In this document: one piece after another, positions 1,530 to 61,713 of the stretch
Position numbering within the stretch: the first letter of the stretch is position 1
How the letters are laid out: each line of letters starts with the position of its first letter
IMG/VR virus record: IMGVR_UViG_3300029581_000002
Strand: one strand, 5' to 3'
Origin: a virus
Taxonomy: Duplodnaviria > Heunggongvirae > Uroviricota > Caudoviricetes
Length of the DNA: 64,000 nt
Position numbers and translations under genes: made by a program
The notes under the pieces: generated by a model
The model's database searches: none
The model's input: the letters and a program-made list of their open reading frames with translations, nothing else
Told to the model about the DNA's origin: nothing

Positions 1530-2512
1530 GCCCTTTCAATTAAATTAAGTGTCTTCTCTCTACCATATTTAGCATGAAAGTCAGATATATCTTTAGCTCC
1601 ATAAGACCTAGGAATGAAGATGCAGTCTATGTTAAACTTCTTTCTTATCTGGTTCATGTTATGAATGCCAGGCAAGTCGTTATCATAGAATACAACTATC
1701 TTCTTAAATCTTTTACTCAACTTCTCGAATTGAGATTCAGTTAAGAATAAATTCTCTGAATTAGGAGCTATTGCAGTAATTCCTAAAGAATATAGACACA
1801 TAACGTCTTTCATACTCTTAGTAACTACTAACAAATCGCCTTCTGCCGGAAGCTGATGTGCTCCCTGTAACATGATAGACTTCCAGTTAGATAGAAACCG
1901 TGTAGTTCCTCTTTCTCTAAATGGAAAGTAGATTCTCCATAACTCAACCCCTTTATCGTTCTTACCACGATAATAGCCAAACATGGGATTCTGTGGACCA
2001 GTAGTGGCATAATAACTGCCATTTAAATAGACAGCCTTGCAAGAATAGACTCTGAATCTCTTCAGAATCTCCTTAGTAATGCCATATTGTGCCCACCACT
2101 GTAGTTCAGATTCAGTGAACTCTTGTACATCAGCTCTTATAATCGCAGGTCCATCGTCCTTAAATTCAGACTTACTTGCGACTACAGGCTTATTGTTCTT
2201 AGGTAACGTTTTATGAGTTATATAGCCAAAGTCGTTAGCAATTATTTGCAATGCCTTATAATAAGTACAACTATACTTATACATAACCACACTAATGAAA
2301 TTACCATAGAACTGTCCGCTGAAGTCATTGAATATGATGTCTCCAGACGCATTCCTATAAAAGGAACACGTAGGAGAATTATCATTTCTCAACGGAGATT
2401 TAAACAACCCTTTCTTAACTGGGATTCCTAGATAGTACTCAAGATAAGTTTCCTGAGTCTGCCTTTCAAGTAAATACTTCTTAGTAATTTTAGGTTCATA
2501 TTCCAATACCAT
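1508..2512 (-). CDS. DNA primase (DnaG/TOPRIM-like)
   Basis: Zinc-binding-like SPLRNDNSPTCSF segment followed by a TOPRIM-like acidic motif VVFYDNDLPG. It sits next to the helicase and SSB genes. Confidence 0.6.
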   Translation of the reverse strand: MVLEYEPKITKKYLLERQTQETYLEYYLGIPVKKGLFKSPLRNDNSPTCSFYRNASGDIIFNDFSGQFYGNFISVVMYKYSCTYYKALQIIANDFGYITHKTLPKNNKPVVASKSEFKDDGPAIIRADVQEFTESELQWWAQYGITKEILKRFRVYSCKAVYLNGSYYATTGPQNPMFGYYRGKNDKGVELWRIYFPFRERGTTRFLSNWKSIMLQGAHQLPAEGDLLVVTKSMKDVMCLYSLGITAIAPNSENLFLTESQFEKLSKRFKKIVVFYDNDLPGIHNMNQIRKKFNIDCIFIPRSYGAKDISDFHAKYGREKTLNLIERAWRTLKK

Positions 2513-2559
2513 ATTATTTCAATGTTTAATGTTTGAACCTCAAATTTACTAATTAATTA

Positions 2560-3243
2560 TTACACTTCAAAGTCAAGGTCTGCGTTATCTGTGGCTGCAT
2601 CATTAGATGCTGCAAAATCGTCAGAACTTGTACCAGGCATATCAGTAGGGCCGTTACTCTTCTGTTTATTCATCTGACTGATTTCATAGTCAGAGAAGAA
2701 TACTTTGTCTCCTAACCAGTTGTTAGAGATATATGCATCACCTGCTTTACTGATATTGACGAAATAAGGCAGACAAGGTTCGCCTTTCTTATTAGCAATC
2801 AGCTTCAGATTAGTATGCTTATTAACTGCATCCTTAGTGATGTCGGCAAATGTCTTTACCAATTTCTCAAACTCTTCCGGAAGGGCAAAAGTTTTAGTTT
2901 TAAATGCTTCATATTTCTTAGGAGCAAGTTGTTCTCCAATATGAGCTAACATAAATTTAAACTTCTCAAAGTTGGACGGACTTTCACGTTCAACTCCATT
3001 GTTAGAGCTTACTTGTCTTACATCATCTCCCTCTTTAGGACAGAATACTGTTTCTTCATAAACACCATTCTCATTCTCGAATGAAATTCTCATGGTTTTG
3101 TACACTGCGTCAGGGTCTTTCTTACCCTTAAACTCATTAAATGTTATTCCCTTGAAGATAACATCGTGGATTTCCCATGGTTTCAGTCTTGGTTTAATAG
3201 ATGATGTACCGTTCGTGTTTGTTAAGTTGAAATTCATTGACAT
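2560..3243 (-). CDS. single-stranded DNA-binding protein
   Basis: 227 aa with an acidic C-terminal tail (...DDFAASNDAATDNADLDFEV) characteristic of SSB proteins. It lies in the replication module. Confidence 0.5.
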   Translation of the reverse strand: MSMNFNLTNTNGTSSIKPRLKPWEIHDVIFKGITFNEFKGKKDPDAVYKTMRISFENENGVYEETVFCPKEGDDVRQVSSNNGVERESPSNFEKFKFMLAHIGEQLAPKKYEAFKTKTFALPEEFEKLVKTFADITKDAVNKHTNLKLIANKKGEPCLPYFVNISKAGDAYISNNWLGDKVFFSDYEISQMNKQKSNGPTDMPGTSSDDFAASNDAATDNADLDFEV

Positions 3244-3255
3244 AGTTTATAAGTA

Positions 3256-3816
3256 TTAAAGTTCAAAAGTTAATGGGTCAATCTCTTTAGCTGACTCATC
3301 TCCAATCTCTGTGTCTAACGGCAAATCAATGTTGTCGCTTTCATCTTCTAATACCTCTATGTTATCTACTTCAGGCTCTTCCGGCCTTTCAGCATTACCA
3401 ACTAATACGAAGAGGTCGTCTTGACCTTTCATCGTAGTTACTGTAAATGTATCGCCATACTGACGTAGCATGTCATTAGCTTTACCTCTACAGCTGACAG
3501 ACAGACTCTTAGTAAGTTTGTTTCCACCTTTGGTTCCAAAGGCTTCATCAGTTCCTATAACGGGGAAAGTGATTCCGTCAATTTTCTGATATTTAATACT
3601 AAGTCTATCTTCCCAAGCAACTCCCATTAATTGGGCAGCTGCTTTATTAAGTATGTACTTGTTAGGGTCTAGGGTAATTTGCGGTTCAGATGTCTCTGGA
3701 ACCTCTTCCTTGACTGTTCTAGTCTTTACTTCTTCTTTGACAATTTCCTGCTTTAGAGATTTATACTCTCCAGTAGCTGGGTCAAAGTCCAAAGTTAACA
3801 GCATTTTAACTATCAT
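3256..3816 (-). CDS. hypothetical acidic protein (recombination-module associated)
   Basis: 186-aa ORF between the SSB and Sak4-like ATPase genes. Confidence 0.4.
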   Translation of the reverse strand: MIVKMLLTLDFDPATGEYKSLKQEIVKEEVKTRTVKEEVPETSEPQITLDPNKYILNKAAAQLMGVAWEDRLSIKYQKIDGITFPVIGTDEAFGTKGGNKLTKSLSVSCRGKANDMLRQYGDTFTVTTMKGQDDLFVLVGNAERPEEPEVDNIEVLEDESDNIDLPLDTEIGDESAKEIDPLTFEL

Positions 3817-4505
3817 TCTCCGTATTCAAATTTATTGATTGTGTCAATCACCATCTTCATATTAGGTTCAACATATAAATCAGGGAAACATCCTGCGGTA
3901 CTTCTACAAGTATCTGGACCAAGTGACCTTGTTCTGAATTTATAGTCAACCTCTTCATCATTTACAATCTTCTCTGCATACAGCAAATAATTAAACAGTC
4001 CATCTATATTAACAGACCTATCCAACATCTTTCCAGTAGTAAATAACTTATATTTAGGGTCATAGTCGTTACCGTCATTTACAATATGAGATATGAACAC
4101 TACAATTAAATCCTCTCTAAGAGTCATAGCCTTCATTATTAAATCATAATAGTGCTTTGCAAAGTCAATATGCTTATCATATCCTTTCTCCGCACTTCTA
4201 GACATCACCTCTTGTGAAAGAAGATAATTACTATCGTCAATTACTAAGACCTTAATCTCTGGCATTTTAACATTAACTACATTCATGATGTTCATCACTT
4301 TGGCAAATTCATTGCTGAAATACCAATTTCCAACATAGTTCTTGTCTTTGTCCTGAGTTAGCTTCTTGTAATTCTTCCTAAATCCTGGAATTGATAATTG
4401 TTTAGGAGTACAGCTAATGATAAATGTCTCCTTTGGGTTTAAATACTGTAGGGAACTAGACTTACCACTTCCCGAAAATCCTCCAAGTCCTATAATTTGG
4501 CTCAT
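3813..4505 (-). CDS. AAA_24/Sak4-like RecA-family ATPase
   Basis: Walker A GFSGSGKSS and Walker B VLVIDD. About 230 aa, adjacent to SSB, as is typical for phage Sak4 annealing ATPases. Confidence 0.5.
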   Translation of the reverse strand: MSQIIGLGGFSGSGKSSSLQYLNPKETFIISCTPKQLSIPGFRKNYKKLTQDKDKNYVGNWYFSNEFAKVMNIMNVVNVKMPEIKVLVIDDSNYLLSQEVMSRSAEKGYDKHIDFAKHYYDLIMKAMTLREDLIVVFISHIVNDGNDYDPKYKLFTTGKMLDRSVNIDGLFNYLLYAEKIVNDEEVDYKFRTRSLGPDTCRSTAGCFPDLYVEPNMKMVIDTINKFEYGE

Positions 4506-29078: not shown

Positions 29079-30146
29079 CTAAACTAACTTATCGAATATC
29101 ATGGGCTGTATCGACATCCATAAATTTGCTAGCATTTCTCGCTCTGCGTCAGATGCTTCATCCCAATGTGATACGTACAATTTCTCCGTTCGTTCATTCC
29201 TATAAGGAACCTTAAATGAACGGTTAATGCGTACACTGTGTGCGAATAGGTCTTTGTCGAAATCAATAGCCCTAAGCGTCTTCTGGAAATCGTTGAACTT
29301 ATTATTAGGGTCATCGACATCCCTAACAGACATTCCAGAAGGAAACGGGCCGTTACCATGCCTTGTTATATAAGGACGAGTTACATAACAAGTTTGGATT
29401 TCTTTACGTATACCTGCTTTCCGCAACAGCTCGTAAGCGTTTTGTGAAGTTGTATTAGACGGAGTACAATAAGGCATTATGCCGAATCTTTGGTCAAGCA
29501 ATATTCCCTGTGAACCTTCAAACACTAGGTTATCATAATTCAACAAGCAATCTTCATTAACCGTACCTGTATGTAAGAAATAAGCATGTGCTAACCTACA
29601 CCAGTTGTCTAGGTCTATCGAAGGATATTTACTAGACATGTTGTAATAGTTATCCACTATGGCATTTAGTTTCTCACGCAGTATGTAAGGATTCATACAA
29701 TCTACAACTGTTAAGCTGTATCCTGCCTTAACCCGGTCCAAACAAGCTTTAAACCCTGTACCTACAGTACCATGTCGTAAGTTCTCTTCGTTATTAACTT
29801 GGGAATAGACATCGAAGGGAATTACAACTTGGCAGTGAGGGTGATACTGAACAATGGGATGAACTCCCATTTTAGCTAAGTCTGCACCCTCCAACATAGA
29901 GGTAATTGGGTCTACAGTACAGTATTCGGACCAGTACGTCGGCACTCCAAGTAAGGTTCCGCTGCCAAAGTTACTAAAGGTGTGCATCATGTCTCCATGC
30001 TTTACAGTATGTCCTACTTGATGTCCACCACTAAACCTGACTACTAACACAGACTCTCGCTTACCTATGTACTTGTTACATAAGTTGTGAACTGTCTGTC
30101 CCTTACCTTCGTCTCCAAAGAATGTTCCTAATACAATACTAATCAT
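29079..30146 (-). CDS. adenylosuccinate synthetase family protein (PurA/PurZ-like, short form)
   Basis: VLGTFFGDEGKGQ (PurA P-loop GDEGKGK), FSGGHQVGHT (YQGGHNAGHT) and FEGSQGILLD...MPYCTPSNTT (FEGAQGTLLD...YPYVTSSNTT). At 355 aa it is about 75 aa shorter than cellular PurA, as phage PurZ enzymes are. Confidence 0.65.
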   Translation of the reverse strand: MISIVLGTFFGDEGKGQTVHNLCNKYIGKRESVLVVRFSGGHQVGHTVKHGDMMHTFSNFGSGTLLGVPTYWSEYCTVDPITSMLEGADLAKMGVHPIVQYHPHCQVVIPFDVYSQVNNEENLRHGTVGTGFKACLDRVKAGYSLTVVDCMNPYILREKLNAIVDNYYNMSSKYPSIDLDNWCRLAHAYFLHTGTVNEDCLLNYDNLVFEGSQGILLDQRFGIMPYCTPSNTTSQNAYELLRKAGIRKEIQTCYVTRPYITRHGNGPFPSGMSVRDVDDPNNKFNDFQKTLRAIDFDKDLFAHSVRINRSFKVPYRNERTEKLYVSHWDEASDAEREMLANLWMSIQPMIFDKLV

Positions 30147-33723: not shown

Positions 33724-33775
33724 AATTCTAATAATTAGGTTAATAATGATTTTCGCAAACTCTTATTAGCCAGCG

Positions 33776-33863
33776 CGGAGAGTGCTGGATTCGAACCAGC
33801 GGAACCCTTTTGAGGTTCGGTCCCTTAGCAGGGGACTGGTTTAAGCCACTCACCCAACTCTCC
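33776..33863 (-). tRNA. tRNA-Ser(GCT)
   Basis: Type II: acceptor GGAGAGT, anticodon stem GTCCC/GGGAC with loop CTGCTAA, long variable arm, T arm GCTGG TTCGAAT CCAGC. Confidence 0.7.
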
Positions 33864-33950: not shown

Positions 33951-35912
33951 TTACTTTACAGGAGGAAAATTATCACCTTTAGCTGGTGATTCTTCTGGCT
34001 TCTTGCCAGTGATTATTTGCTTAAGCGAATCTGCAATGGGCAAATTGCGAGCAATTTCCAAGCTTGGAGCAAGATTCTTAGCCATATTAGCCATGAACTG
34101 CCCAGCAGTATTGGAATCACCATACACAGTAACATTACCAAGCTGGATATGTTCAAACACCTTAGCGTTGGCTTCAGCAACTTCTTTCCACCTGTCGGTC
34201 ATTGCATATTGAACGATTGCTTCAGGATGCATACCTGATTTAATCATATGTTCAACTGCAAGAGCCGGAGCCATTTCCATTGCCTGTTTCTGTTCAGCTT
34301 CTGCCATTAAAGATGCTTTCTTACCTTCAGCTTCAGCAAGAAGTTTCTTCTTGGTACCTTCAGCTTCTGCTTCCAGTTGCATCTTAGTAGCATTTGCTTT
34401 AGCTTCTGCTGCTTTCAAGATTTTAGCTGCTTCCGCTTCTGCTTCAAGAATGGCTACACTCTTAACAGCTTCTGCTTCAATTTTAGCTTTCTCTTTGGCT
34501 TTCTCGGCAGGTATAATTACTTCAGCTTTAAGCTTAGCTTCTTCAGCTTTAGCTTTAGCTTCGTTAACTTCCACCTGACGTTCTTGCTCTGTTTTAGCAA
34601 CTGCCATTTGAGCTTCAACTTTAGAAGTACCAGCTACTCTTTCTGCTTCAGCTTTAGCTTTCTCTGCTTCTCCCTTAGCTTTGGAAACTTCAATAGTAGC
34701 TTTCTGTTCAGCTACTCCTGCTGCTTTCTCTGCTTCAGCTGCCTTTTGACGGGCTTCTGATTCATACTGTGCAGTTTTAGCTTCCTTTTCCTGCTGTGCT
34801 TTAACAGTTTCAGCTTCTTGGTTTTGTGCTGCTACTGCCATACGAACTTCCTTCTCTGCTTCTGCTTCTGCCTTAGCGGCTTCAGCTTTGGCAGTAAATT
34901 CTGCTTCTTTAGCAGTTGCATAAGCTTGCTGCTCTGCAATCTTAGCAGCTCTTAATGCTTCTTGCTCGGCAACTTTGGATGCTTCTTCAGTTTGGGCTGT
35001 AGCCACACCAATTTCACGTTCCTTTCTTTGCTCTGCAACAGCAATTTGCTGCTCCTTATGCTGCTCGGCCAATTGAGTTTCTTTCTCTTTAGTGGTCTTA
35101 GCAATAGCAACTTCTTTCTCCCTGTTAGTTTCAGCCACTATAGTTTCTTGCTCCTTAGTAGCTGCTGCAATTGCAATCTCCTTCTCTCTCGTAGTTTGAG
35201 CTATCTGGATTGCTCCTTTCTTCTCTTCTTCTGCGATATCAGCTTGTGATTGCGCTCTTGCTTTAGTCTCTTCTTTCTTACCAAGATTATCAATATATTG
35301 AGCAGCATCTTGAATGTCACTGATATTGATATTCATCAGATAAAGACCAAGTTTGTTCAATTCTGTATTGATATTGTCTCTAGCTTGAGCTAGGAACTTG
35401 TCTCTGTCAGAGTTAAGCTCTTCAATAGTCATCGAAGCAATAACAAGCCTCATCTGACCATAAACAATATCTGAAATCAAACTTTCTTTAACGTCATCAT
35501 CAGCACCTAGTAAGCGATTAGCAGCATTCTGCATAATCAGCGGTTCTTGGCTAATAGCAACAGTTACAGTGGTAGGGATAGTTACACGAATATTTTGAGC
35601 TGACAAAGCATTCTTCAATACAAGATTCAATTGAATCGGCTGCATTGACATTACTTCATAACCCTGTATAATCGGCCATACAAAAGCTGCACCACCATGA
35701 TAAACTTTGGCAGTTTTAATTTCAACTTCTCTGTCAACCAGATTACCTTTAGCGTCGCGTTCGCTAACTTTCTCTTTGTGAGAGCCTGTTTTACCATAAA
35801 CTACCAACAATTCGTCAGATTTACATTTACGGTAGCGGGATAGAATCCCAATGATAGTGATGATTGCAACTAGTACAACTACACCAACGATAATTAATGA
35901 TGTCATTTCCAT
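33951..35912 (-). CDS. flotillin/SPFH (band-7) family membrane protein
   Basis: N-terminal TM helix, an SPFH-like domain, then about 300 aa of A/E/K-rich coiled coil (EAEAEK repeats) as in YqiK/FloT. Confidence 0.6.
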   Translation of the reverse strand: MEMTSLIIVGVVVLVAIITIIGILSRYRKCKSDELLVVYGKTGSHKEKVSERDAKGNLVDREVEIKTAKVYHGGAAFVWPIIQGYEVMSMQPIQLNLVLKNALSAQNIRVTIPTTVTVAISQEPLIMQNAANRLLGADDDVKESLISDIVYGQMRLVIASMTIEELNSDRDKFLAQARDNINTELNKLGLYLMNINISDIQDAAQYIDNLGKKEETKARAQSQADIAEEEKKGAIQIAQTTREKEIAIAAATKEQETIVAETNREKEVAIAKTTKEKETQLAEQHKEQQIAVAEQRKEREIGVATAQTEEASKVAEQEALRAAKIAEQQAYATAKEAEFTAKAEAAKAEAEAEKEVRMAVAAQNQEAETVKAQQEKEAKTAQYESEARQKAAEAEKAAGVAEQKATIEVSKAKGEAEKAKAEAERVAGTSKVEAQMAVAKTEQERQVEVNEAKAKAEEAKLKAEVIIPAEKAKEKAKIEAEAVKSVAILEAEAEAAKILKAAEAKANATKMQLEAEAEGTKKKLLAEAEGKKASLMAEAEQKQAMEMAPALAVEHMIKSGMHPEAIVQYAMTDRWKEVAEANAKVFEHIQLGNVTVYGDSNTAGQFMANMAKNLAPSLEIARNLPIADSLKQIITGKKPEESPAKGDNFPPVK

Positions 35913-35925
35913 CTTGAAATTGGTA

Positions 35926-36447
35926 TTAATCTATGTATAATTTATTGTCTTCGTATTTACGAATCGTTACTGGCTCATTGACAGGATATATCTTCTTATT
36001 AAGAGATACAACTTCTACTTCTCTCAATGCTCCACTTATGTTCACGGATGCCAAATGGCGCCCTTCACCTAAATGTACATAGATAGTAGCAGTTCTGCCA
36101 ACTAAGTTAGTCTTCGGTTCGTCTTTAGGAAGGTTCTGCAATTTCATACAGAACTTATATAAATGATACAGCATAAATACAAATACAAGACCTATAAAGA
36201 ATCCTATTAACCAATCAATCCAGGTTACTTCATAACCTAATAATTGCTTAATAGATGTCCATCCTCCGAATCCCATGAAGAAATGGATAAATCCTTTAAA
36301 GGATACAACATCACTGACATCAAAATCAGCATCACCATCAAAGTCTACATCGACATCGAACTCCCCAGCAACCCATGATATTATGAATTGTAGGATAAAT
36401 ATACCATAGGCGATGCCTCCTAAGATATAATACAAGTTATTGTCCAT
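35926..36447 (-). CDS. NfeD-like membrane protein (partner of SPFH/flotillin)
   Basis: Multi-TM N-terminal region plus a C-terminal soluble beta-rich domain (..RTATIYVHLGEGRHLASVNISG..VVSL). It sits immediately upstream of the flotillin gene, as in yqiJ-yqiK. Confidence 0.5.
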   Translation of the reverse strand: MDNNLYYILGGIAYGIFILQFIISWVAGEFDVDVDFDGDADFDVSDVVSFKGFIHFFMGFGGWTSIKQLLGYEVTWIDWLIGFFIGLVFVFMLYHLYKFCMKLQNLPKDEPKTNLVGRTATIYVHLGEGRHLASVNISGALREVEVVSLNKKIYPVNEPVTIRKYEDNKLYID

Positions 36448-36476
36448 CTTACTAATAATTATTTAATCTATTAAAG

Positions 36477-36551
36477 TGGGGCGAAATGGAGTCGAACCAT
36501 TATCTCTGGATTTTCAGTCCAGCGCGAACTGACCACCTGCGCTACCGCCCC
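36477..36551 (-). tRNA. tRNA-Phe(GAA)
   Basis: Acceptor GGGGCGG/TCGCCCC, anticodon stem CTGGA/TCCAG with loop CTGAAAA, T arm AATGG TTCGACT CCATT. The D arm is slightly atypical. Confidence 0.6.
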
Positions 36552-36851
36552 ATACTGCCTACACATACGTCTTCACTGGATTTTATGCTTTATTACGCCA
36601 GTTGCTTTGGACAGTCTAAATCCTTCGGTGCTGTACAGCTATACATATATTAACGAGGCCTCAACATTAATTAAGCTGCCATCGCACCTACTCCCATTAC
36701 TTCGTCACGCAACGTACCCTACATTCCACTTTAGGATTTTCACCTAACCACATCCTCGGCATTCCGTTTCAAGATAAAATATAACTCTGCTGAATAAGTC
36801 AAACCAAACAGGAAGATTTATGATACGTTTATACTTAAACAGCAGAATTGG

Positions 36852-36932: not shown

Positions 36933-37511
36933 TTATTGCAACTCTAATCCTTCTTTTAGTGCCCTAGTATATGCCATTCTAGCAAAGAATAGTTCAGCTA
37001 CAGCCATAACTACTGGCTCTGCTAACTCTTCGGCTTCTTCAGCTCTTTCTTCTTTGGGCTTAGATTCTACATATTCCAGTAATTCCAACACAGCTCTATT
37101 AGCTTCAACCAGACGACTATAAGCAGTGCGAACTTGTTTATAGTTCTTATATCGTTCTCGATATGGTCTTATTGCATTCCATGAATATGAAGCAGCCACT
37201 ATTATTGATATGGCACATAGTACCATAAATCCGAGGGGTTCTCCTTTAGACCATGCTGAATAGATTTGACACAATACAACACCCAAACATAGATTCTGTC
37301 CTATAAAGAGGGACAGTAAGAACCAATAAGCTGAAAATGCCTTCTTTGCTTCATCAAGTAATGATGCTGACTCTTTTAGCTTCTCTTGTTCAGCTTTTAA
37401 TGAGTCAATTGACACTTCCATAGCTTCTCCTTCGTCTGAATCTTTAAGGCGTTCATATTCCTCTTCACTAATCTTGGTTATTTTCAAATCTTCTAATTCT
37501 TCTCGATTCAT
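36933..37511 (-). CDS. hypothetical membrane protein
   Basis: 192 aa with an acidic N-terminus and two central TM helices. Confidence 0.4.
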   Translation of the reverse strand: MNREELEDLKITKISEEEYERLKDSDEGEAMEVSIDSLKAEQEKLKESASLLDEAKKAFSAYWFLLSLFIGQNLCLGVVLCQIYSAWSKGEPLGFMVLCAISIIVAASYSWNAIRPYRERYKNYKQVRTAYSRLVEANRAVLELLEYVESKPKEERAEEAEELAEPVVMAVAELFFARMAYTRALKEGLELQ

Positions 37512-53555: not shown

Positions 53556-54038
53556 TTATTCCTTGCAATATGCAATGACATTTACGTTCATTTGGCTGCC
53601 GTCCCTTGCGACGCTTTCAAACGTTTCTATCGCCTTTGCGGTTACTTCCGTACCTTGTAAATCTGCAAGACATTCCGCTATTGTCTTATTTTCAAACATA
53701 TTGAAAATACATTTGTCTTTGTCCGCCTCTGGAAGAATGTCAACCGGTGTAATACGCTTGTTGTTTTCACGGTCGTTGAAAGACCGGAACAAAGAGTTTA
53801 TAGATACGTTTCTTGCCACTCCATTGACTTCTACGGCAACTTGAAAGAACGTATTGCCATTTACAACACCCTTTGTAATAGTTCCGTTGAACTCGTTAAT
53901 TTCAGCGGGAAATTTCAATTTGTCGCCTACCTTGATAGAATCAGGATTAACACCCAAACGGTTTAAAGCCGCCGCAATTTCGTTTTTGCTTGCTTTCGGT
54001 AACTTCTTGTTAACTTCTTGTAATTCTGCTAAATTCAT
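53556..54038 (-). CDS. hypothetical protein; first gene of the minus-strand module
   Basis: 160-aa ORF starting next to the divergent regulatory region. It is GC-richer than its surroundings. Confidence 0.4.
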   Translation of the reverse strand: MNLAELQEVNKKLPKASKNEIAAALNRLGVNPDSIKVGDKLKFPAEINEFNGTITKGVVNGNTFFQVAVEVNGVARNVSINSLFRSFNDRENNKRITPVDILPEADKDKCIFNMFENKTIAECLADLQGTEVTAKAIETFESVARDGSQMNVNVIAYCKE

Positions 54039-54347
54039 AGTTTAATAATTTATTAGTGAAACAATATAGAACGGGCTTATTTACCCGTTCTTGATTTAAT
54101 TTTATACGCCTGCAATTAGTTCTTTATATTCTGACATTGTGATATAACAACCTGTAAGATTAACACGAACTAAACCGTTTGATAAAATAGTGTATATAAG
54201 CTAATAATTTTAAAATGAATATTATAAAGCAAAACCAAATGATATAAATCTTTTGATTTTCTCCAAACATGGGTGAGGGGTGTGAAGGGTAACACGACTG
54301 TCGTATCCGCAATATACACAAATCTTGCAATATTCACCTAGCATCCG

Positions 54348-54559
54348 AGTTGGCAATATATAATATGACAACCCACCCCGGGAGTGGGAGGGGTGTGATT
54401 TTGAGCACCCGTACTTGTGAGTTGGCAATATATATTAATTTCTATTCATCTTACTAATTGCAAGCAAGCCCCGAAGGGGCGCAGATTGCCACAGCACGTC
54501 ATGAAGTTCCGAGTTGGCAATATACTTAATATTAACTGTGAATTTGAGTTGGCAATATA
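54348..54559. promoter_or_regulatory. divergent regulatory region with four direct repeats GAGTTGGCAATATA plus GC-rich hairpins
   Basis: Exact 14-mers at 54348, 54419, 54511 and 54546. There are extra GCAATAT cores at 54309 and 54327. A GCCCCGAAGGGGC hairpin lies at 54468..54480. Confidence 0.6.
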
Positions 54560-54691
54560 TAATATATATTAATAATTATATTACCATTTGGTAATATTGA
54601 AATATATAACTAATTTTGTATTGTCAAATTAAATAATAATATATTTGCGAACTTAAATCAGAATTATTAACAATAACTAAAATTTATACCA

Positions 54692-54946
54692 ATGGCTAAA
54701 GAAGTTAAAGACTTAACAAGTAAAGAAGTAGATGAAGTAAAAATATTAAAGACTAGTTTGTCAGAATGTCCAGTAAATACTGATTTAGGATGTAATGAAT
54801 CAAAGGCAACTAACTGGGTGAAGTTAGACAATAAAACAACAGATGTAAAATTAGAATTATTAAATAAATTGCAAGACGGACTAGCTAATGGAGCTGGTAT
54901 TGAATATTTAATGCAACTATCTTGCATTTATAATAACATTCGCTAA
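54692..54946 (+). CDS. hypothetical protein
   Basis: 84-aa ORF, first plus-strand gene. Confidence 0.4.
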   Translation: MAKEVKDLTSKEVDEVKILKTSLSECPVNTDLGCNESKATNWVKLDNKTTDVKLELLNKLQDGLANGAGIEYLMQLSCIYNNIR

Positions 54947-54948
54947 TA

Positions 54949-55323
54949 ATGAGACATATTGATAGAATTAATAAGCAGTATGAAGAGAAGGAAGTTAAAT
55001 TGCTATATGATAAAGCTGTAGCGTTAATGAATCTTCTTAGTGATGAGGAATATGAACAAGTAATTACAGATAATGCAGATATATTTAAATTAGCATCTCA
55101 TCCCGAGAGGGGTGAGTTCTATTTACAAGATAAGCACAACTTAGTCCAGATTGTAGACATATTTAGTAAATTCATTAAAACTAAAGGCCTATCTAAGGAC
55201 GAATTTAAAATAATGACTCTAGATGAAGTTAAAGAGTATATGGTTGATGTTATTAATGATATCACATCATTCGAACCAGATGAGCTATTCACGATAGTAA
55301 AGAACTTAGAGAAACTTCAATGA
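54949..55323 (+). CDS. hypothetical protein
   Basis: 124-aa ORF. Confidence 0.4.
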   Translation: MRHIDRINKQYEEKEVKLLYDKAVALMNLLSDEEYEQVITDNADIFKLASHPERGEFYLQDKHNLVQIVDIFSKFIKTKGLSKDEFKIMTLDEVKEYMVDVINDITSFEPDELFTIVKNLEKLQ

Positions 55324-55631
55324 AACTAGAACAGATACCAGGTGATTATGATAATGTAGACCAGAGAGCTCTAGAATTATTAAAGACTAATGACTATGAA
55401 TTAGCAGAGTATATGAGGGATTATATAAAGGAATTATATGCTAACATACATATGAGAGACTTCTATATTAGAAACCTTAAGGATGAAATACTTCATACAC
55501 TCAAACATAGAGACTCTATAAGTGGTGAGGAGCTACTACAAATACTAAATAAGGTAGCTCCATGGGATATGGAATATGATGGCAGATGGCAAACTAGAGA
55601 CTATTTAGCAAGAGCAAAGGCTAATCAATGA
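55320..55631 (+). CDS. hypothetical protein
   Basis: 103-aa ORF with an ATGA overlap with the previous gene. Confidence 0.4.
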   Translation: MKLEQIPGDYDNVDQRALELLKTNDYELAEYMRDYIKELYANIHMRDFYIRNLKDEILHTLKHRDSISGEELLQILNKVAPWDMEYDGRWQTRDYLARAKANQ

Positions 55632-55734
55632 TAACACAAGAAGTAGAATTAGTAGAAGAAGCATTATATAGGAATGCGTACATATATCCAGGCTGGAAGT
55701 ATTGCCTACCTGGATTACTAAAGACAATATATTT

Positions 55735-55971
55735 ATGACAGGAGAAGAAATTATAGTAACATTTAAAGAGCCTTGGTATAATGATTATACCAGACGATTA
55801 TACACTCAATTATCTGAACAAATGATTAGAGAAGAGATTGAGAGAGTGCATAAAGAACCAATCATTACTAATACTGCATTTGATATAGCAGTAGACAAGG
55901 CTTTCTTAGAGTTACTGCATGACAACAAGGATTTAATTAATATCACAGAACGATACAAGAACCATGAGTAA
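55735..55971 (+). CDS. hypothetical protein
   Basis: The ORF track starts at a TTG (55702). The first ATG is at 55735 (MTGEEIIV..). Confidence 0.35.
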   Translation: MTGEEIIVTFKEPWYNDYTRRLYTQLSEQMIREEIERVHKEPIITNTAFDIAVDKAFLELLHDNKDLINITERYKNHE

Positions 55972-56026
55972 AATAGCAACAGAATTAGAAGCTAAGACTA
56001 TGGGGGGGGACTCTCTCGGTAATTGA
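55964..56026 (+). CDS. leader ORF MSKIATELEAKTMGGDSLGN ending just after the G8 tract; in -1 register to the downstream ORF
   Basis: Manual translation. Deleting one G from G8 (56002..56009) fuses it in frame to the ORF that is open from 55989 to 56609. Confidence 0.4.
   Translation: MSKIATELEAKTMGGDSLGN
56002..56009 (+). repeat. G8 homopolymer at the leader/main-ORF junction
   Basis: Direct count of eight G. Confidence 0.9.
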
Positions 56027-56177
56027 TAATAAGTGCTGTACTAAAGCTAGAGCACTTGAATTAGGATGTCAGATTAAAAGTGGATTTAGTTATACTGATA
56101 ATCAGTTAGTAGAGTTAGAAGGTATAGAGGCAGCTATAACTGCTCCAAATGTAATCCTTCATTATGGTTGGCAGGAT

Positions 56178-56609
56178 ATGCCAATTAATAATATACAGCA
56201 ATTTAGAGTACGTTTCTCATTTGTTAATGAGAGTTCAGTGAATGGAGAGCCGTTTAAGTATTCTGACAATACTATGTACTTTACAATTACTCCAAGATTA
56301 GAGCAAGGAGAACGAACGTACACTAAGACTTTAGCAAATCCTCTTAAATATTACTTAGAGAAATTAGCACCTTCTAACCAAGACCCATATAATACACCTG
56401 TTTGGATACGTTTTGAGGGATACATGATGCTTAAGCAAGTGTCTCAAATTACATTAGCAGTAGATTCTCAATCTGAGAATTGGGCAGAAGGAGTAACATT
56501 TCCTTCATCTGGAAAGTGGGTCAAAATGAATAATTCTGGTAGAGTACTTAGATTTACTGGTGGGGAAACAGACCTAAACATAGAACTGTATACAGCATCA
56601 GCGCAATGA
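56178..56609 (+). CDS. hypothetical protein; frame open upstream to 55989 with no ATG, likely the main body of a G-tract-controlled gene
   Basis: 143 aa from the first ATG. The upstream in-frame 63 codons carry no start codon. Confidence 0.45.
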   Translation: MPINNIQQFRVRFSFVNESSVNGEPFKYSDNTMYFTITPRLEQGERTYTKTLANPLKYYLEKLAPSNQDPYNTPVWIRFEGYMMLKQVSQITLAVDSQSENWAEGVTFPSSGKWVKMNNSGRVLRFTGGETDLNIELYTASAQ

Positions 56610-56803
56610 TTAAAGTAACTGATAATAAAGAAGTAAAGGAAACAGTCCTAGCAGGACTTAAAAGGAATAAAGAGAAGTATGGTAAGAAGTATTGTCCATG
56701 CTCTTTAGTAAGAGATGAAGATACAGTATGTATGTGTAAAGAGTTTAGGGAAATGGAAGAAGGGACTTGCCATTGCCAACTTTATGTTAAAACTAAAGAC
56801 TAA
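56606..56803 (+). CDS. ferredoxin-thioredoxin-reductase catalytic-subunit-like Cys-rich protein
   Basis: YCPC(x11)CMC(x11)CHC mirrors the CPC...CHC arrangement of the FtrC/FTR catalytic chain. Confidence 0.4.
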   Translation: MIKVTDNKEVKETVLAGLKRNKEKYGKKYCPCSLVRDEDTVCMCKEFREMEEGTCHCQLYVKTKD

Positions 56804-56808
56804 TAATT

Positions 56809-56979
56809 ATGGATGAATTAAAGAACCAATTAGCACAGTATTTATGTAGCCAAATTCATAATGGCACTAAGGATTTGATTGAATTAATTGAATCAGAAGA
56901 CCTTATTAATGAACAGTGGTATAAGAACTGGAAGGAAGAGATGAGAATCTTACTACAGGAGAAGTAATTATGATAATAC
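56809..56979 (+). CDS. small hypothetical protein (56 aa)
   Basis: Manual ORF MDELKNQLAQYLCSQIHNGTKDLIELIESEDLINEQWYKNWKEEMRILLQEK. Confidence 0.3.
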
Positions 56980-57209
56980 TTAGTGGAAATTGTCCTAGGC
57001 ATCATAATGCCATTATGTTGGAACTTACAGACTTTGATGACAGTAAAATTTCCTATCTAGCTAGAATATCTAGAGGACATCATGTTGATACTCTGTTAGT
57101 TCCTAGGGAATATAAAGATACATTTGAATCTACAGAACTATATAAAGTATTACTGCCTAATATTAGTATAGGTGATGTACAATTTGCTAAAATATACTAT
57201 TATGATTGA
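56970..57209 (+). CDS. hypothetical protein
   Basis: 79-aa ORF. Confidence 0.35.
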   Translation: MIILSGNCPRHHNAIMLELTDFDDSKISYLARISRGHHVDTLLVPREYKDTFESTELYKVLLPNISIGDVQFAKIYYYD

Positions 57210-57432
57210 CGTTAGAAAGACATTAGAGAATTTACATCAGATACTTCCAAACTTATCAATAGAGGACTTATTTAGAGTTCTTGATAACATAGTAGAGATT
57301 CCACAATTTAACGTAGGACAGACAACTACTATACGTAGAGATAATAGTGGCTGGAGACCATATGACACAGGTACATTTATATCTTATGCTAGTAATGGAA
57401 TAACACTTAGTGATGAAGGAACTTGTAAATAA
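57172..57432 (+). CDS. hypothetical protein
   Basis: 86-aa ORF. Confidence 0.35.
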   Translation: MMYNLLKYTIMIDVRKTLENLHQILPNLSIEDLFRVLDNIVEIPQFNVGQTTTIRRDNSGWRPYDTGTFISYASNGITLSDEGTCK

Positions 57433-57619
57433 CTGGAATGAGAAACATCCCGAATACGTATTGGTACACGGGATGTATTCTTATGTAGACAATGGACAAT
57501 CTAAGGATATGCACATGCTTACTATCTTTAATAAGGATAATGAATGTGTATGTGAATATAAAGGAGAAGATTTTATTAAATTATATAATACATTAGAAGA
57601 AGAATGGGAAAGCGATTAA
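57410..57619 (+). CDS. hypothetical protein
   Basis: 69-aa ORF. Confidence 0.35.
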   Translation: MMKELVNNWNEKHPEYVLVHGMYSYVDNGQSKDMHMLTIFNKDNECVCEYKGEDFIKLYNTLEEEWESD

Positions 57620-58284
57620 TTAATGTTGATGAAGTGGAGGAGATAGTACCTGTCCTAGTAGGCAAATTACTAGAGAACAATTTGATAACGGAGGAACAAG
57701 CGGACCAAATCATCTGTGCAATCTTTAATGATAACGATAGGCTAAATGAAATTAGGGAATTAAATCCAGATTATGATATTAGTATGCATAAGCTGAATGT
57801 TTGCGTGGGAGATAGTCAGTATAGACTAGTGTATTGTATATATGTAGAGCATAAAGAATCTGGGATAAGTGTGTATAGGGACAAGGACTTCGATGTACAG
57901 GAAGTGATAAACAGACTTCCATCTAAATTCACAATAGAGAAAGAACAAGAGTTGCTTCCTAAAGGAGTAAATATAAAGATTCATAAATACTCTATTAACT
58001 GTGCAGTAAGTCTATTTAGCAACGCTGCTGACTACTTTAAAGACCATACAGTAAATATAACTATTAGTTATCCATTAAAGAATCCGTATACATTCACTGC
58101 TAAATGCCGCAATTTGAATGATTTAATAAATGAAATAACCCTTGCATATAGAAGGATTTACGAAGAAGAGAAGGAGAATCCAGGTAAGTATGGAATATGG
58201 GGACATCATATAGAAGATTTATGGCTTGAGAAAGCTACTCTCGATATAGAGACTGGTAATGTTAAAATACTTGTAGGTAGTTAA
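57604..58284 (+). CDS. hypothetical protein
   Basis: 226-aa ORF. Confidence 0.45.
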   Translation: MGKRLINVDEVEEIVPVLVGKLLENNLITEEQADQIICAIFNDNDRLNEIRELNPDYDISMHKLNVCVGDSQYRLVYCIYVEHKESGISVYRDKDFDVQEVINRLPSKFTIEKEQELLPKGVNIKIHKYSINCAVSLFSNAADYFKDHTVNITISYPLKNPYTFTAKCRNLNDLINEITLAYRRIYEEEKENPGKYGIWGHHIEDLWLEKATLDIETGNVKILVGS

Positions 58285-58285
58285 T

Positions 58286-58567
58286 ATGGATAATAAATTA
58301 AATGTACAGAAACTAGGATATGAAGTAGGAGAACCTATGTGGGTTCATTGGGACGATAGATACGTATGGCGTGGAGGACATATACTAGGAAAATGCCCAG
58401 ATGAGAATTTGATAACCACAGTGGGCTACTTGGCATATATGGATGATAAATCAATAATATTGGGAAGAGGTATTGAGAATCATTGTGATGAGGACGGTAC
58501 TCGCAGAGTAAAAGATACAATACACATACCAATGAGCTTAGTAGCTAGTTTTGGAAGTTTTGATTGA
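58286..58567 (+). CDS. hypothetical protein
   Basis: 93-aa ORF. Confidence 0.4.
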   Translation: MDNKLNVQKLGYEVGEPMWVHWDDRYVWRGGHILGKCPDENLITTVGYLAYMDDKSIILGRGIENHCDEDGTRRVKDTIHIPMSLVASFGSFD

Positions 58568-58573
58568 TGAACT

Positions 58574-59428
58574 ATGATAAATGAGGAGTATAATAAATGG
58601 CTAATCCTTTACTTTGATATGCAATCTATAAATTTACAGTTCAATTGTAATGATATAGCATCATCACTAAAGGCACAAAGAGATAAGATAAAACAATTCT
58701 GTATTGACTGTCTAACAGGAGTAAAATATCAGGCTGACAGCTTTCTATTTGACACAAATGCCTGCATATTCTCTACTCCCGAAACTAGAGAGCTATTGTT
58801 CTCGCATGAAGAATATCTCATTCTTGAGGCTGATACTACTAAAGTAGTTGACGGAAAGTATCCCTTAGACTACGCTAACGAAATAGTAGAATCTAATTTG
58901 GACACTATTATTGACTATATAGTACAATCAGGAACAGAAACATACAATGATAGAACCAGTAGAGGATTTGGGAATAGGTGGAGTCCTTATAATGAGGAGG
59001 AACGTAAACAAGTAATTAAACTGTTTAACTCTGGAACTTGGTATGATACACTTGGGTCCTTAAAGCATTTATATTATGAAAGAACCCCCAAAGGCTTAAG
59101 AATGTGTAACCTGACTGGCGAACCCTTACAAGCCAATGTTCTAGAACATATAGAAGATATTATTTTGAACATAAAAGACCATTATGAAACATTTGCCGTT
59201 GTTCCTAGAGGTAAATCTAAATTACAAGTTTATATGACAATTAGCAATGGAACAAATGGGGCTGAAGGATGTATTATTAATTCTATGGAAGATGTTCTAA
59301 ATGTGCTTAAAAACTTAAGGAAATATAAAGGAGTAAATTGGTCACAGCTACTAGAAGTTGGGACAGATAATGCAGATGATTTATATTGGTGGTACGTGAC
59401 ATTCTCTATAGACACTACGGCTGTGTAA
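58574..59428 (+). CDS. hypothetical protein
   Basis: 284-aa ORF. Confidence 0.45.
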   Translation: MINEEYNKWLILYFDMQSINLQFNCNDIASSLKAQRDKIKQFCIDCLTGVKYQADSFLFDTNACIFSTPETRELLFSHEEYLILEADTTKVVDGKYPLDYANEIVESNLDTIIDYIVQSGTETYNDRTSRGFGNRWSPYNEEERKQVIKLFNSGTWYDTLGSLKHLYYERTPKGLRMCNLTGEPLQANVLEHIEDIILNIKDHYETFAVVPRGKSKLQVYMTISNGTNGAEGCIINSMEDVLNVLKNLRKYKGVNWSQLLEVGTDNADDLYWWYVTFSIDTTAV

Positions 59429-59443
59429 TAAATTAATATAAAT

Positions 59444-59704
59444 ATGAGCAAATGGAATGACTGGGCAATTACTACTAAATTCCCACCTATAAAGCCAGGT
59501 TACGGTATGAATTGTAGAACGGATTATAAAATAGATGTAGTATTTAAAGTACGTACAGGTAAGGGATATTGGAGAGGAAGTAAGTATCTTTATGTATGCA
59601 ATAATAACACTATTTACTTGTTAGGTTCAGATGCAGGAATACATCACGTAACAGAAGAGTTACCTAGTAACCTTGAAGCTAAAGTCCGTGAGTATAAACC
59701 TTAA
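59444..59704 (+). CDS. hypothetical protein
   Basis: 86-aa ORF starting MSKW. Confidence 0.4.
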   Translation: MSKWNDWAITTKFPPIKPGYGMNCRTDYKIDVVFKVRTGKGYWRGSKYLYVCNNNTIYLLGSDAGIHHVTEELPSNLEAKVREYKP

Positions 59705-59724
59705 ATGAATTAATATGAATTAAT

Positions 59725-60093
59725 ATGAATTGTAAATTAAAACGTAAAGACTTAGTACTTATTAAATGGAATAGCAAGTACATGACTGATAGAGAAGGAT
59801 GCAGTCTATCAGAAGATGTTAAATATTTAAATAGAGATATAGAAACAAGTACAGTAGGTTACTTCATAGAAGAAGATGATAAAGCTATTGTACTTGCTTC
59901 AAGTATTTATGGTATTAATATACCTGATTCATTATGTAAGGATTGTATGGTAATTCCTAAAGCCTATATAAAAGATATAACTTCGATTGGCACAGAGCTT
60001 GTTGCTCAGCTCTTATATTTCTTACAACAACGTAATTACATTACAGAAGAGCAAATGAATGATGCATGTAATGAGATTCTAAAATCAAATTAA
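59725..60093 (+). CDS. hypothetical protein
   Basis: 122-aa ORF. Its start codon sits inside a triple tandem atgaattaat / atgaattaat / atgaattgta repeat. Confidence 0.4.
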   Translation: MNCKLKRKDLVLIKWNSKYMTDREGCSLSEDVKYLNRDIETSTVGYFIEEDDKAIVLASSIYGINIPDSLCKDCMVIPKAYIKDITSIGTELVAQLLYFLQQRNYITEEQMNDACNEILKSN

Positions 60094-60094
60094 T

Positions 60095-60340
60095 ATGACT
60101 AATGAACAATTAAATCAATACTATAGTAAAGATGCAGATAAGAAACAGTGTTGGGTAAGTAAAGACCATAACTGCCCATTAAAGGAACAATGCAATGGAC
60201 TTGTTAAGCCAGAATGTAAAGAGCATATAGACAATGAAGACGCCTGCCATGCTATTGATAAGATGATAGAATGGTATTACCAAGTAAAAGAACCTGAATT
60301 TCTAAAGTTCTATAATTGTCACTTAGAGATGATTAAGTAA
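60095..60340 (+). CDS. hypothetical Cys-rich protein
   Basis: 81-aa ORF with a C..C....C....C..H.C pattern. Confidence 0.35.
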   Translation: MTNEQLNQYYSKDADKKQCWVSKDHNCPLKEQCNGLVKPECKEHIDNEDACHAIDKMIEWYYQVKEPEFLKFYNCHLEMIK

Positions 60341-60625
60341 CTTTACATACTAAATAAAAGAAGCAACCCGTTTTACATCTGGGTTGCCAGTGGATGCTAG
60401 GCACAAAGCCTAAGATAGTTTTTACGTCTTCGTCTTGGTGGTCTACACCAGTGCGCTCTGACGTATTCCCACTTACCGAGACGGAATCTCCAGTAAGCAT
60501 GGACAAAGACGGTCTTTGCTATCTCCATAATTAACACCTCCTTTCTATGATTTAATTCAATCTCGGAAGTTGAGGTGCAATTATGGTGATGCAAATATAG
60601 TAATTAAATTAATATAACAATAAAT

Positions 60626-60727
60626 ATGAGTAAAATAGTAACACAAGACAAACTGAATGAATTAACAGGTAAGAATATAGATTATGGGAAGGGGGGGGTA
60701 TTGTCCTCATTACCAAACCATAGTTAG
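60626..60727 (+). CDS. leader ORF MSKIVTQDKLNELTGKNIDYGKGG.. running through the G8 tract, out of frame with the main ORF
   Basis: Manual translation. One G fewer fuses it to the 60684 ORF after ..YGKGG. Confidence 0.4.
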   Translation: MSKIVTQDKLNELTGKNIDYGKGGVLSSLPNHS

Positions 60728-61697
60728 TCTCTGGGGTAGCGTAGTTGCGTCTAGTAACTACCAGCCAAATCAATTAGTTAAAGAAGAAGATATAGTTGTA
60801 GACAAAGACCTATTCCTTATTAATGCGGAGACAGGTAGTTTATACTTTGCTGGCGGTGGTACCTATGCTCAAATTCCAGCTATAGACGGCCATGAGGATT
60901 TTATGTACATAGCTGGAGGAGGTGAAGCAATTGGAGCATTGTCTATGCTTGGAGGATTGTATGTAGTTAATCAGTCTACCAAACAGTGGGAATTAAAATA
61001 CAAAGATACTGTAAGAGCTTATGGTTATGCTCACTTGGCTAGATTCTCTACTGGCTGGATATTTTATAAGGGAGCAGGAGGAGACGGTAAGAACTATGTT
61101 ATTATAGTATATGATAATGGCACGACAAAGGAGTTAAGCGTCGTAAGTAATGTCCACAGCATATCAACTGGGCCTTATAATTACTGCTGCGTTGGAGTAC
61201 TATATCAGGGAGGGGCTAGGATATATACCTTCTTAGCTACGTCTGCGCCAGATTCTCTTACTTATTATACTCCGGGAATGTTTACACCAAATGCAGTAAT
61301 ACAGGGGGATTATGCTTCACCAAGAGGTATAGTATATAGCACTACTAGTAATTACACATACTTTAGTGCTAATCCAACTGGAACTCAATGGACTGCTGCA
61401 ACCACTAGACCACAACTAACTGCTTTGACTAAAGGTTTGTATGCAAATGCCGAGTTTATGCTTATAGGAGGTAACATGAAGAGCGTGTCTACAGACGGAG
61501 GTCAGAATTGGACTACCTCTACACTAGGCGCATACACTCTTACTGATTTAATATATGTAGATTCAAATTGGTATGCAATTGGTTCGAATGGAACTAAAAG
61601 ACTCCTATTGCAGAATACAGCTTCTACATTTGACCAAAGTAATAAAATACTTGACTTGCCTGACTATTCTAGACAAGTAATTAAGATTAACGTATAA
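60684..61697 (+). CDS. G/T/S/Y/N-rich beta-type protein, candidate tail fibre/receptor-binding protein
   Basis: 337 aa with the composition and GGG/TT/SS runs typical of fibre proteins. The ATG at 60684 is in frame only in the G8 state. The gene is followed by a bidirectional terminator. Confidence 0.45.
   Translation: MGRGGYCPHYQTIVSLWGSVVASSNYQPNQLVKEEDIVVDKDLFLINAETGSLYFAGGGTYAQIPAIDGHEDFMYIAGGGEAIGALSMLGGLYVVNQSTKQWELKYKDTVRAYGYAHLARFSTGWIFYKGAGGDGKNYVIIVYDNGTTKELSVVSNVHSISTGPYNYCCVGVLYQGGARIYTFLATSAPDSLTYYTPGMFTPNAVIQGDYASPRGIVYSTTSNYTYFSANPTGTQWTAATTRPQLTALTKGLYANAEFMLIGGNMKSVSTDGGQNWTTSTLGAYTLTDLIYVDSNWYAIGSNGTKRLLLQNTASTFDQSNKILDLPDYSRQVIKINV
60691..60698 (+). repeat. G8 homopolymer inside the start region of the fibre-like gene
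   Basis: Direct count of eight G. Confidence 0.9.
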
Positions 61698-61713
61698 TAA
61701 GTTAATATAATAA

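Follow-up and report, generated by a model that had tools for sequence, protein, structure and literature searches.

The window analysed here is a 64,000-nt stretch of the genome of a virus of the class Caudoviricetes (IMG/VR record IMGVR_UViG_3300029581_000002), which encodes on its minus strand, one directly after the other, a 173-aa membrane protein and a 653-aa protein. With high confidence, the two genes are identified as an nfeD-like gene and a flotillin gene, i.e., as the two parts of an operon that is near-universal in bacteria and whose role, the ATP-independent stabilisation of membrane proteins, is now emerging (PMC11222466). Judging from sequence comparison, the pair is host-derived and homologous as a unit to a chromosomal operon of Bacteroidales, which are probably the hosts of this large human-gut phage. 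Our reading, to which we attach a probability of about 0.6, combines this identity with a membrane-stabilising role. Taken on its own, the specific role, i.e., the stabilisation of the membrane and of its proteins until lysis, is tentative and stands somewhat short of even odds.

The 653-aa protein is recognised as a flotillin-type SPFH protein by its match to Pfam PF01145 (Band_7; E=1e-24, 88 bits against a gathering cut-off of 23.6). Flotillin-2 and flotillin-1 are its only matches among PDB sequences at E<=1e-3 (best 2.6e-17, over residues 71-407), no solved HflK, HflC, stomatin or prohibitin chain being matched at this threshold, and FloT is its only NCBIfam match (123.6 bits, over the N-terminal 290 residues). 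Residues 216-545 (330 aa) contain 26% Ala, 20% Glu and 14.5% Lys, and their hydrophobic autocorrelation of 0.38, 0.28 and 0.22 at lags of 11, 22 and 33 residues corresponds to a hendecad pattern. Tandem Repeats Finder detected no 33-bp DNA repeat, the 11-residue periodicity existing at the protein level only. In the AlphaFold2 (AF2) model, the predicted local distance difference test (pLDDT) score is mostly 75-88 over residues 91-200, and long helices span residues 206-558. Hence, the organisation given in the initial annotation, a transmembrane anchor followed by an SPFH domain and approximately 300 aa of Ala/Glu/Lys helices, is borne out by hydropathy, by the Band_7 match and by the 330-aa region. 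The same annotation had considered that the long protein could turn out to be a tape-measure-like structural protein, and long Ala/Glu/Lys helical regions are indeed common in tape-measure and scaffold proteins. A structural protein with a chance resemblance to SPFH proteins nevertheless deserves practically no credit, since Band_7 is matched far above its threshold, the homology to chromosomal bacterial flotillins extends over the full length, and the gene lies among replication genes and tRNAs, its only PHROG match being the non-structural phrog_200 (category “other”, label “lipoprotein”, 5.4e-8). A tape-measure identity as such was rejected on the Band_7 match and the flotillin homology, no tape-measure family being matched and the gene lying outside the tail module.

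The 173-aa protein is a member of the NfeD family in its short form. Two strong hydrophobic helices and a weaker one make up its N-terminal transmembrane region, and the AF2 model, built from a 17-sequence alignment (mean pLDDT 77), adds a beta domain of five strands (residues 119-172, pLDDT ~88), so that the multi-transmembrane protein with a C-terminal beta domain described initially is retained. The hydropathy peak of 2.11 belongs to the second strong helix (residues 76-98) only and not to the helix at residues 50-69, which is opened by an SFKG motif; S49, F50, K51 and G86 are invariant. Between the first two helices lies an acidic loop that is disordered in the model (pLDDT <50, residues 28-42). 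Its residues D33, D37, G38 and D41 do not vary within the phage-clade alignment, and the loop is also found in Bacteroides NfeD-like proteins; metal binding by this DxDxDG-type loop is a speculation. As no library hidden Markov model (HMM) matches the protein directly, structure and profile evidence is needed for its identity. An exhaustive profile search retrieved 1443 representatives of the family at E<=1e-3. With a profile of 62 diverse members, YuaF was the top PDB sequence (E=1.5e-4, aligned over the C-terminal domain); with a narrower profile of close phage homologues only, no NfeD structure was found among PDB sequences. Pfam NfeD is matched by 8/62 members at E<=0.1 (best 4.4e-6), no other family being matched by more than two, and with PF01957 a phage relative of 175 aa reaches 13 bits, the gathering threshold being 29.1. 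Homologues on human-gut contigs are 36-99% identical, and a 43%-identical viral relative is named “NfeD-like C-terminal domain-containing protein” in UniProt. Thus, of the two profile searches proposed with the initial annotation, the one for Band_7/SPFH succeeded (E=1e-24) and the one for NfeD gave no match for the window protein itself.

The position of the nfeD-like gene directly upstream of the flotillin gene is the canonical bacterial arrangement (PMC11222466) and, independently of structure and profiles, also places its product in the NfeD family. The order proposed initially, that of yqiJ-yqiK or nfeD-floT operons, holds as to the membrane partner coming first and the flotillin second (PMC11222466). 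Its YqiJ component finds no counterpart: no YqiJ model occurs among the Pfam matches of the NfeD-like protein at E<=10, nor is YqiJ one of the 25 Pfam families listed as most frequent among the 62 relatives. In layout, the protein presumably resembles YqiJ, the partner of E. coli YqiK. A long-form NfeD (STOPP/1510-N type) is not indicated, the protein having 173 aa and no match to a ClpP-like protease family in Pfam. This bears on the possibility that the pair acts like HflK/C, with an SPFH cage that would enclose and tune FtsH or another protease and so determine how stable phage or host proteins are. FtsH is enclosed by SPFH assemblies such as HflK/C, and NfeD family members were first described as membrane-protease regulators (description of PDB 3cp0). 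Instead, the PDB matches point to flotillins and not to HflK, HflC, stomatin or prohibitin, the short NfeD-like protein has no protease domain, and the neighbours searched showed no protease gene, which makes an HflK/C-like function very unlikely.

The closest cellular homologues of the pair, in a scan with one genome per species, belong to a chromosomal operon of Bacteroides, Phocaeicola, Parabacteroides, Prevotella and allied genera, in line with the Bacteroidota YqiK-like source suggested by the initial annotation. At 79 Bacteroidales loci, the flotillin is 42-46% identical to the phage one by tblastn (~50-54% over aligned columns), and a 164-205-aa NfeD-like gene lies directly upstream at 77 of them, the other two lacking upstream sequence. 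The Bacteroidales NfeD-like proteins are 37-44% identical to that of the window and have the same layout, i.e., a hydrophobic helix, an acidic DxDxD loop, SFKG, a second hydrophobic helix and a C-terminal beta domain starting with LVGR. The flotillins of both groups share the motif SRYRKCKSD, which reads SRYR[KR]C[AK]SD in its more general form common to Bacteroidales flotillins. As illustrated by Phocaeicola vulgatus ATCC 8482 and Bacteroides xylanisolvens XB1A, gene order and short spacers are those of the phage. The pair is linked at 80/80 IMG/VR viral loci, adjacent at 74 and separated by 366-412 nt at 6, and the gaps are short (mostly 3-26 nt) at the 74 loci and at nearly all Bacteroidales loci. 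The flanking genes differ between viral loci. At loci L088 and L089 (positions 1130-4483), the pair is preceded by GATase_6/7 and COOH-NH2_lig (Pfam) genes and a gene for a 411-aa protein; this neighbourhood of glutamine amidotransferase and COOH-NH2 ligase types is unlike that of the window and belongs to another phage lineage.

Neighbour-joining trees with one outgroup as root place the window-type phage flotillins in a clade (99% bootstrap) outside a tight Bacteroidales clade (100%), which is the comparison with Bacteroidota that had been called for initially. The tree of the NfeD-like proteins is congruent (phage clade 94%), and the pairwise identities of the two proteins are correlated (Spearman 0.83). 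Wider IMG/VR sampling revealed several deep viral lineages, some of them on contigs of 376 kb and 435 kb. Both genes show a ratio of nonsynonymous to synonymous substitution rates (dN/dS) of 0.07-0.16 at dS ~1, i.e., purifying selection. From the trees and this strong selection, the pair is an old, vertically retained module and not a recent capture, and its long retention is seen in several large-phage lineages.

Base composition had been the initial argument for a capture from a host, both genes having been described as richer in GC than their neighbours. Compared with the 41 open reading frames (ORFs) of the window (mean GC 0.378 +/- 0.024; mean GC at third codon positions, GC3, 0.333), this does not hold: the nfeD-like gene, with 0.352, is below the mean, and the flotillin gene, with 0.411, is approximately 1.4 standard deviations above it, its excess lying wholly at first codon positions (0.592, due to codons for Ala and Glu) while its GC3 of 0.277 is below the mean. 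Because the excess is confined to position 1 and GC3 is low, GC content provides no evidence for capture. Hence, the proposed host origin survives on the closeness of the Bacteroidales operon, whereas its compositional basis was wrong and the event was old rather than recent.

The same data address the possibility of an artefact, in which host DNA would have been misassembled to phage DNA or the pair would be the decaying passenger of a recent transfer. Such an artefact would find support in one 25-kb IMG/VR “viral” contig (L157, IMGVR_UViG_3300045988_141550): its flotillin falls within the clade of Bacteroides, and the contig probably represents host DNA or the flank of a prophage and not a phage copy. 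Instead, a flotillin sequence identical to that of the window occurs on many IMG/VR viral contigs, and the window-type pair and its relatives on at least 93, typically of 140-193 kb. Contigs of this size from human-gut metagenomes also carry flotillin relatives. The pair also occurs in hundreds of sample blocks (343 for the exact sequence of the relative P0096) and keeps a conserved position within the 140-193 kb contigs. In addition, the phage sequences lie outside the Bacteroidales clade, their GC3 is at or below the phage average and dN/dS is ~0.1. These results effectively refute an artefact, which is highly improbable. The 140-kb contig CALUTN010000183.1 (L007), labelled as a Gastranaerophilales metagenome-assembled genome (MAG), contains a phage-type pair whose flotillin (P0138) is 55% identical to that of the window; most likely, this is a contig of phage origin that was binned with a bacterial genome.

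The role proposed for the pair is modelled on Staphylococcus aureus, in which the OB-like domain of NfeD binds the coiled coil of FloA and stabilises FloA oligomers, the complex holding unfolded membrane proteins without ATP (PMC11222466). In both phage proteins, positive charges follow the last hydrophobic helix, which, by the positive-inside rule, would place the SPFH and helical part of the flotillin and the OB domain of its partner in the cytoplasm. The N-terminal helix would thus anchor the flotillin in the inner membrane of the host, and the SPFH domain and the long hendecad helices would oligomerise in the cytoplasm into a flotillin-type scaffold. The NfeD-like protein would sit in the same membrane patch, its OB domain binding the flotillin helices and stabilising the oligomer; this contact between the partners receives indirect support from the congruent trees and the correlated divergence. 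Such a phage scaffold would most likely be an ATP-independent stabiliser of the membrane and of membrane proteins during infection. Through it, envelope and membrane proteome would remain functional up to programmed lysis, the flotillin system of the host being supplemented or replaced.

A feature particular to the phage flotillins is the variable length of their helical wall. Relatives at 66-98% identity carry in-frame deletions of 11, 22, 33, 35, 40, 51 and 141 aa. In one relative, all 618/618 aligned codons encode identical amino acids (proportion of synonymous differences, pS, 0.044) next to a 35-aa deletion. The phage flotillin is also approximately 90-110 aa longer than the Bacteroidales one: compared with Bacteroidales and the phage csAssE-Sib, it has ~19 extra aa before the SPFH core, ~75 in the hendecad region and ~10 near the C-terminus. 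The ~19-residue insertion belongs to the consensus of the window-type phage clade and has no counterpart in the flotillins of Bacteroidales and csAssE-Sib; with low confidence, AF2 predicts that it forms a beta hairpin (residues 45-52/58-65). Given its longer wall and a partner of its own that co-evolves with it, the phage flotillin probably forms assemblies separate from those of the host. This is relevant to an interference with the host system, in which the phage flotillin would, as a dominant negative or a hijacker, co-assemble with or displace the host one and so disable a membrane-stress or defence response. The phage and host proteins, being 50-54% identical over aligned columns that include the SPFH domain and the C-terminal oligomerisation region, could be similar enough for this. 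Yet the phage always carries its own co-evolving NfeD-like partner, which a pure interference protein would not need, and the helical region, longer by ~75 aa, together with the clade-specific insertions would argue for geometrically distinct assemblies; interference is accordingly quite unlikely.

The initial annotation named assembly, superinfection exclusion, and defence or anti-defence as possible roles of the pair. Superinfection exclusion or another form of inter-phage competition, in which the scaffold would alter the inner membrane and block the DNA injection or the membrane-dependent steps of competitors, is unlikely as well. It is suggested by the membrane nature of both products, by the location of the pair among replication genes and tRNAs instead of structural genes, and by the variation of the 11-residue repeat number between near-identical strains, as sometimes seen in conflict genes. 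Against this, neither the two proteins nor three neighbours have a PADLOC-DB v2 match at E<=0.01, selection on both genes is strongly purifying and not diversifying, and the repeat indels may result from slippage or recombination in a repetitive region. Moreover, as the host encodes the same system, its mere presence is unlikely to exclude phages. The membrane-stabilising role, which we prefer, admits a bolder and doubtful extension: large Bacteroidota phages would build flotillin/NfeD compartments of their own, distinct from those of the host, with a wall height set by the strain-variable number of 11-residue repeats, protecting the membrane of the infected cell or organising a membrane-bound step of infection. 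If true, such compartments would guard against premature collapse, e.g., by membrane-targeting abortive-infection effectors or by the own membrane proteins of the phage, and the pair would represent a viral membrane-scaffold system and not a passive copy of a host housekeeping operon.

Several points weigh against the identity, history or role proposed here. The NfeD-like protein of the window has no library HMM match (Pfam at E<=10, NCBIfam, PHROGs, PADLOC). The flotillin misses the NCBIfam FloT equivalog cut-off (NF058507) with 123.6 against 700 bits; lying so far below, it is not a FloT equivalog, and the Bacteroides orthologue, at 141 bits, is likewise below the cut-off. Pfam Flot (PF15975) has no match at E<=1 in residues 231-653 of the phage flotillin, and it does match the P. 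vulgatus orthologue (3.7e-7, 30.7 bits); as the phage C-terminus can be aligned with the host protein, the Flot domain has diverged and has not been lost. AF2 models the flotillin monomer with low confidence (pLDDT 60.5), and the topology of both proteins is one that we infer solely from charge distribution. In the trees, the deep nodes are weak (59-76%) and the mutual monophyly of the viral lineages is uncertain; given the neighbour-joining method and the single outgroup, the number and direction of transfers are not settled. The Bacteroidales host, too, is one that we infer, and a paper of 2026 states that the reason for SPFH genes in phages “remains unclear”.

The features of the locus are collected in Table 1.

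Table 1. Features of the nfeD-like/flotillin locus in the window, in order along the minus strand.
Feature	Residues	Coordinates	Strand	Basis
tRNA-Phe, 28 nt upstream of the NfeD-like start		36476..36551	(-)	same-strand tRNA array
NfeD-like gene, first of the pair	173 aa	35926..36447	(-)	ORF
First transmembrane helix	~5-26	36370..36435	(-)	Kyte-Doolittle 19-residue window peak 2.03; AF2 helix 5-26
Acidic loop EFDVDVDFDGDADFDVSD, net charge -9, DxDxDG-type motif	27-48	36304..36369	(-)	charge count
Amphipathic helix (weaker), then strongly hydrophobic helix	50-69, 76-98	36154..36300	(-)	AF2 helices 50-69, 76-103
C-terminal five-strand OB-fold (candidate partner-binding domain)	112-173	35929..36114	(-)	predicted
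13-nt spacer, NfeD-like TAA stop to flotillin ATG (tight operon)		35913..35925	(-)	sequence
Flotillin-type SPFH gene, second of the pair	653 aa	33951..35912	(-)	ORF
N-terminal membrane anchor, then SRYRKCKSD	3-25	35838..35906	(-)	Kyte-Doolittle peak 3.38; AF2 helix 3-25
~19-residue insertion	~44-66	35715..35783	(-)	gap in alignment with csAssE-Sib
SPFH/Band_7 domain	67-231	35220..35714	(-)	Pfam PF01145 envelope
Ala/Glu/Lys helical region	216-545	34278..35267	(-)	composition, 11-residue periodicity, strain-variable length
C-terminal region	546-653	33954..34277	(-)	alignable with host flotillin, invariant columns, extra ~10-aa insertion
tRNA-Ser(GCT), 87 nt downstream of the flotillin stop		33775..33863	(-)	ARAGORN

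The pair is bracketed by tRNA-Phe and tRNA-Ser. At the site of the latter, ARAGORN also called an overlapping tRNA-Arg on the plus strand (33760-33836), and the Rfam scan at gathering threshold listed no tRNA at 33775..33863. In total, ARAGORN reported 28 tRNA genes in the window, to which Rfam adds one tRNA and a tmRNA. The tRNA array (14763-48317, mostly on the minus strand) comprises 28-29 dispersed genes covering most amino acids and interleaved with same-strand protein genes. Scans for sigma-70 promoters and terminators gave results similar to those of shuffled sequence, the models being probably unsuited to Bacteroidota. Just upstream of the nfeD-like gene, between tRNA-His and tRNA-Phe, lies a 298-nt gap free of ORFs (36552-36849), in which no Rfam family was found at gathering threshold and which could be the site of a promoter or of an undescribed RNA. 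Further upstream, a 192-aa protein (36933-37511, minus strand) has two hydrophobic segments, its N-terminus being an acidic coiled coil and its C-terminus charged and helical; no family is matched, and the protein keeps its position in the close relatives L090 and L091.

The window also encodes a DnaB-like helicase, a primase, an SF2 helicase, an AAA ATPase, a glucosaminidase and a PHROG-1735 protein, the last being common to many large myoviruses. These genes, the tRNAs and the recurrence of the locus on IMG/VR viral contigs support a phage context. The best annotated relatives of its DnaB are crAss-like and Flavobacterium phages (~30% identity), which fits a Bacteroidota host without proving it. 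A megablast search of the locus against GenBank phages gave no match and thus no near-identical deposited phage genome. Several other elements were observed on the minus strand. An Rfam tmRNA match (RF00023; 47155-47676, 85.7 bits against a gathering score of 47) covers 522 nt for a model of 374 positions, which implies insertions, and was not reported by ARAGORN; it would be a phage-encoded tmRNA. At 45172-45279, the RAGATH-34 RNA motif (RF03103) is strongly matched, its 120.9 bits comparing with a gathering score of 60.7. At 40783-40855 lies a tRNA of the suppressor type, whose anticodon CTA reads TAG and which ARAGORN labels Pyl. A recoding of TAG or TGA was considered for the window and rejected, since ORFs are barely longer with either codon read as sense and four long ORFs end in TAG; as TAG still terminates ORFs here, any recoding would concern genes elsewhere in the genome. 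An adenylosuccinate-synthetase homologue (29079-30146; Pfam PF00709, 8.7e-35), the best PHROG match of which is the PurZ-type phrog_1211 (1.6e-46), hints at a genome containing 2-aminoadenine (Z-base); in csAssE-Sib, a “dATP/dGTP diphosphohydrolase” is annotated near the flotillin. On the plus strand, a block at 54000-61700 is distinguished by a lower GC content (0.30-0.36), by reversed GC and AT skew and by ORFs of 122-337 aa; the one tested (60684-61697) had no PHROG match.

Among known systems, csAssE-Sib (OR575929, 151 kb, human gut) is, of the complete phage genomes on deposit, the only one in which this pair was found in this order, annotated as “transmembrane protein” and “flotillin family protein” and located, like that of the window, among replication genes. 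Its flotillin is 63% identical to that of P. vulgatus and 48% to that of the window, and branches with the Bacteroidales clade, while its replication genes are unrelated to those of the window. Hence, csAssE-Sib appears to have gained the pair independently. The “flotillin family protein” of Vibrio phage KIT04 is approximately 30% identical and has no detectable NfeD-like neighbour. SPFH genes have been listed in phages since 2006, in the T4-like RB43, 44RR and Aeh1 (PMC1524935), and also in Vi01-like phages, Schitoviridae GIB1 and Xanthomonas phage X1. The proteins of these phages are annotated as SPFH lipoproteins, and phrog_200 matches the window protein only weakly. No paired NfeD partner is described in the papers on the T4-like, Vi01-like, Schitoviridae and Xanthomonas phage genes. 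Our literature search found no paper on an nfeD-flotillin operon in a phage, on its origin from Bacteroidales or on the polymorphism of its repeats, and no study joining flotillin with crAss-like phages, Crassvirales, csAssE-Sib or anti-phage topics. As phage SPFH genes were known before and the database names of the relatives (flotillin, NfeD-like) are already right, the pair is less unusual than the initial annotation implied.

Compared with the Bacteroidales flotillin, that of the phage is distinguished by the missing Pfam Flot match, by its location on phage genomes and by its separate deep lineages. Compared with NfeD-FloA of S. aureus and YuaF(NfeD2)-FloT(YuaG) of B. subtilis, the solved OB domains are 12-14% identical to the phage NfeD-like protein, and the phage flotillin, which does not reach the FloT cut-off, has a helical region much longer than the 477-position FloT model. 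In eukaryotes, the flotillin-1/2 domes (PDB 9bq2, 9l3g) offer the closest solved counterpart, residues 71-407 of the phage flotillin aligning to 28-367 of flotillin-2. This alignment takes in the SPFH domain and the helical region. Eukaryotic flotillins attach to the membrane by acylation and a hairpin and not by an N-terminal transmembrane helix. Eukaryotes lack an NfeD partner (PMC11222466). The phages, instead, maintain a complete module of partner and scaffold under purifying selection in several large gut lineages, apparently acquired it more than once, and evolved features of their own in the longer, length-polymorphic helical wall and the extra hairpin. Retention, repeated acquisition and phage-specific features argue that, in Bacteroidales, phages are under selection to maintain membrane homeostasis in the cells they infect, and the strain variants offer a natural series for how repeat number sets the geometry of SPFH assemblies. 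Set beside these systems, the pair represents a recurrent, selected phage function rather than a new kind of system.

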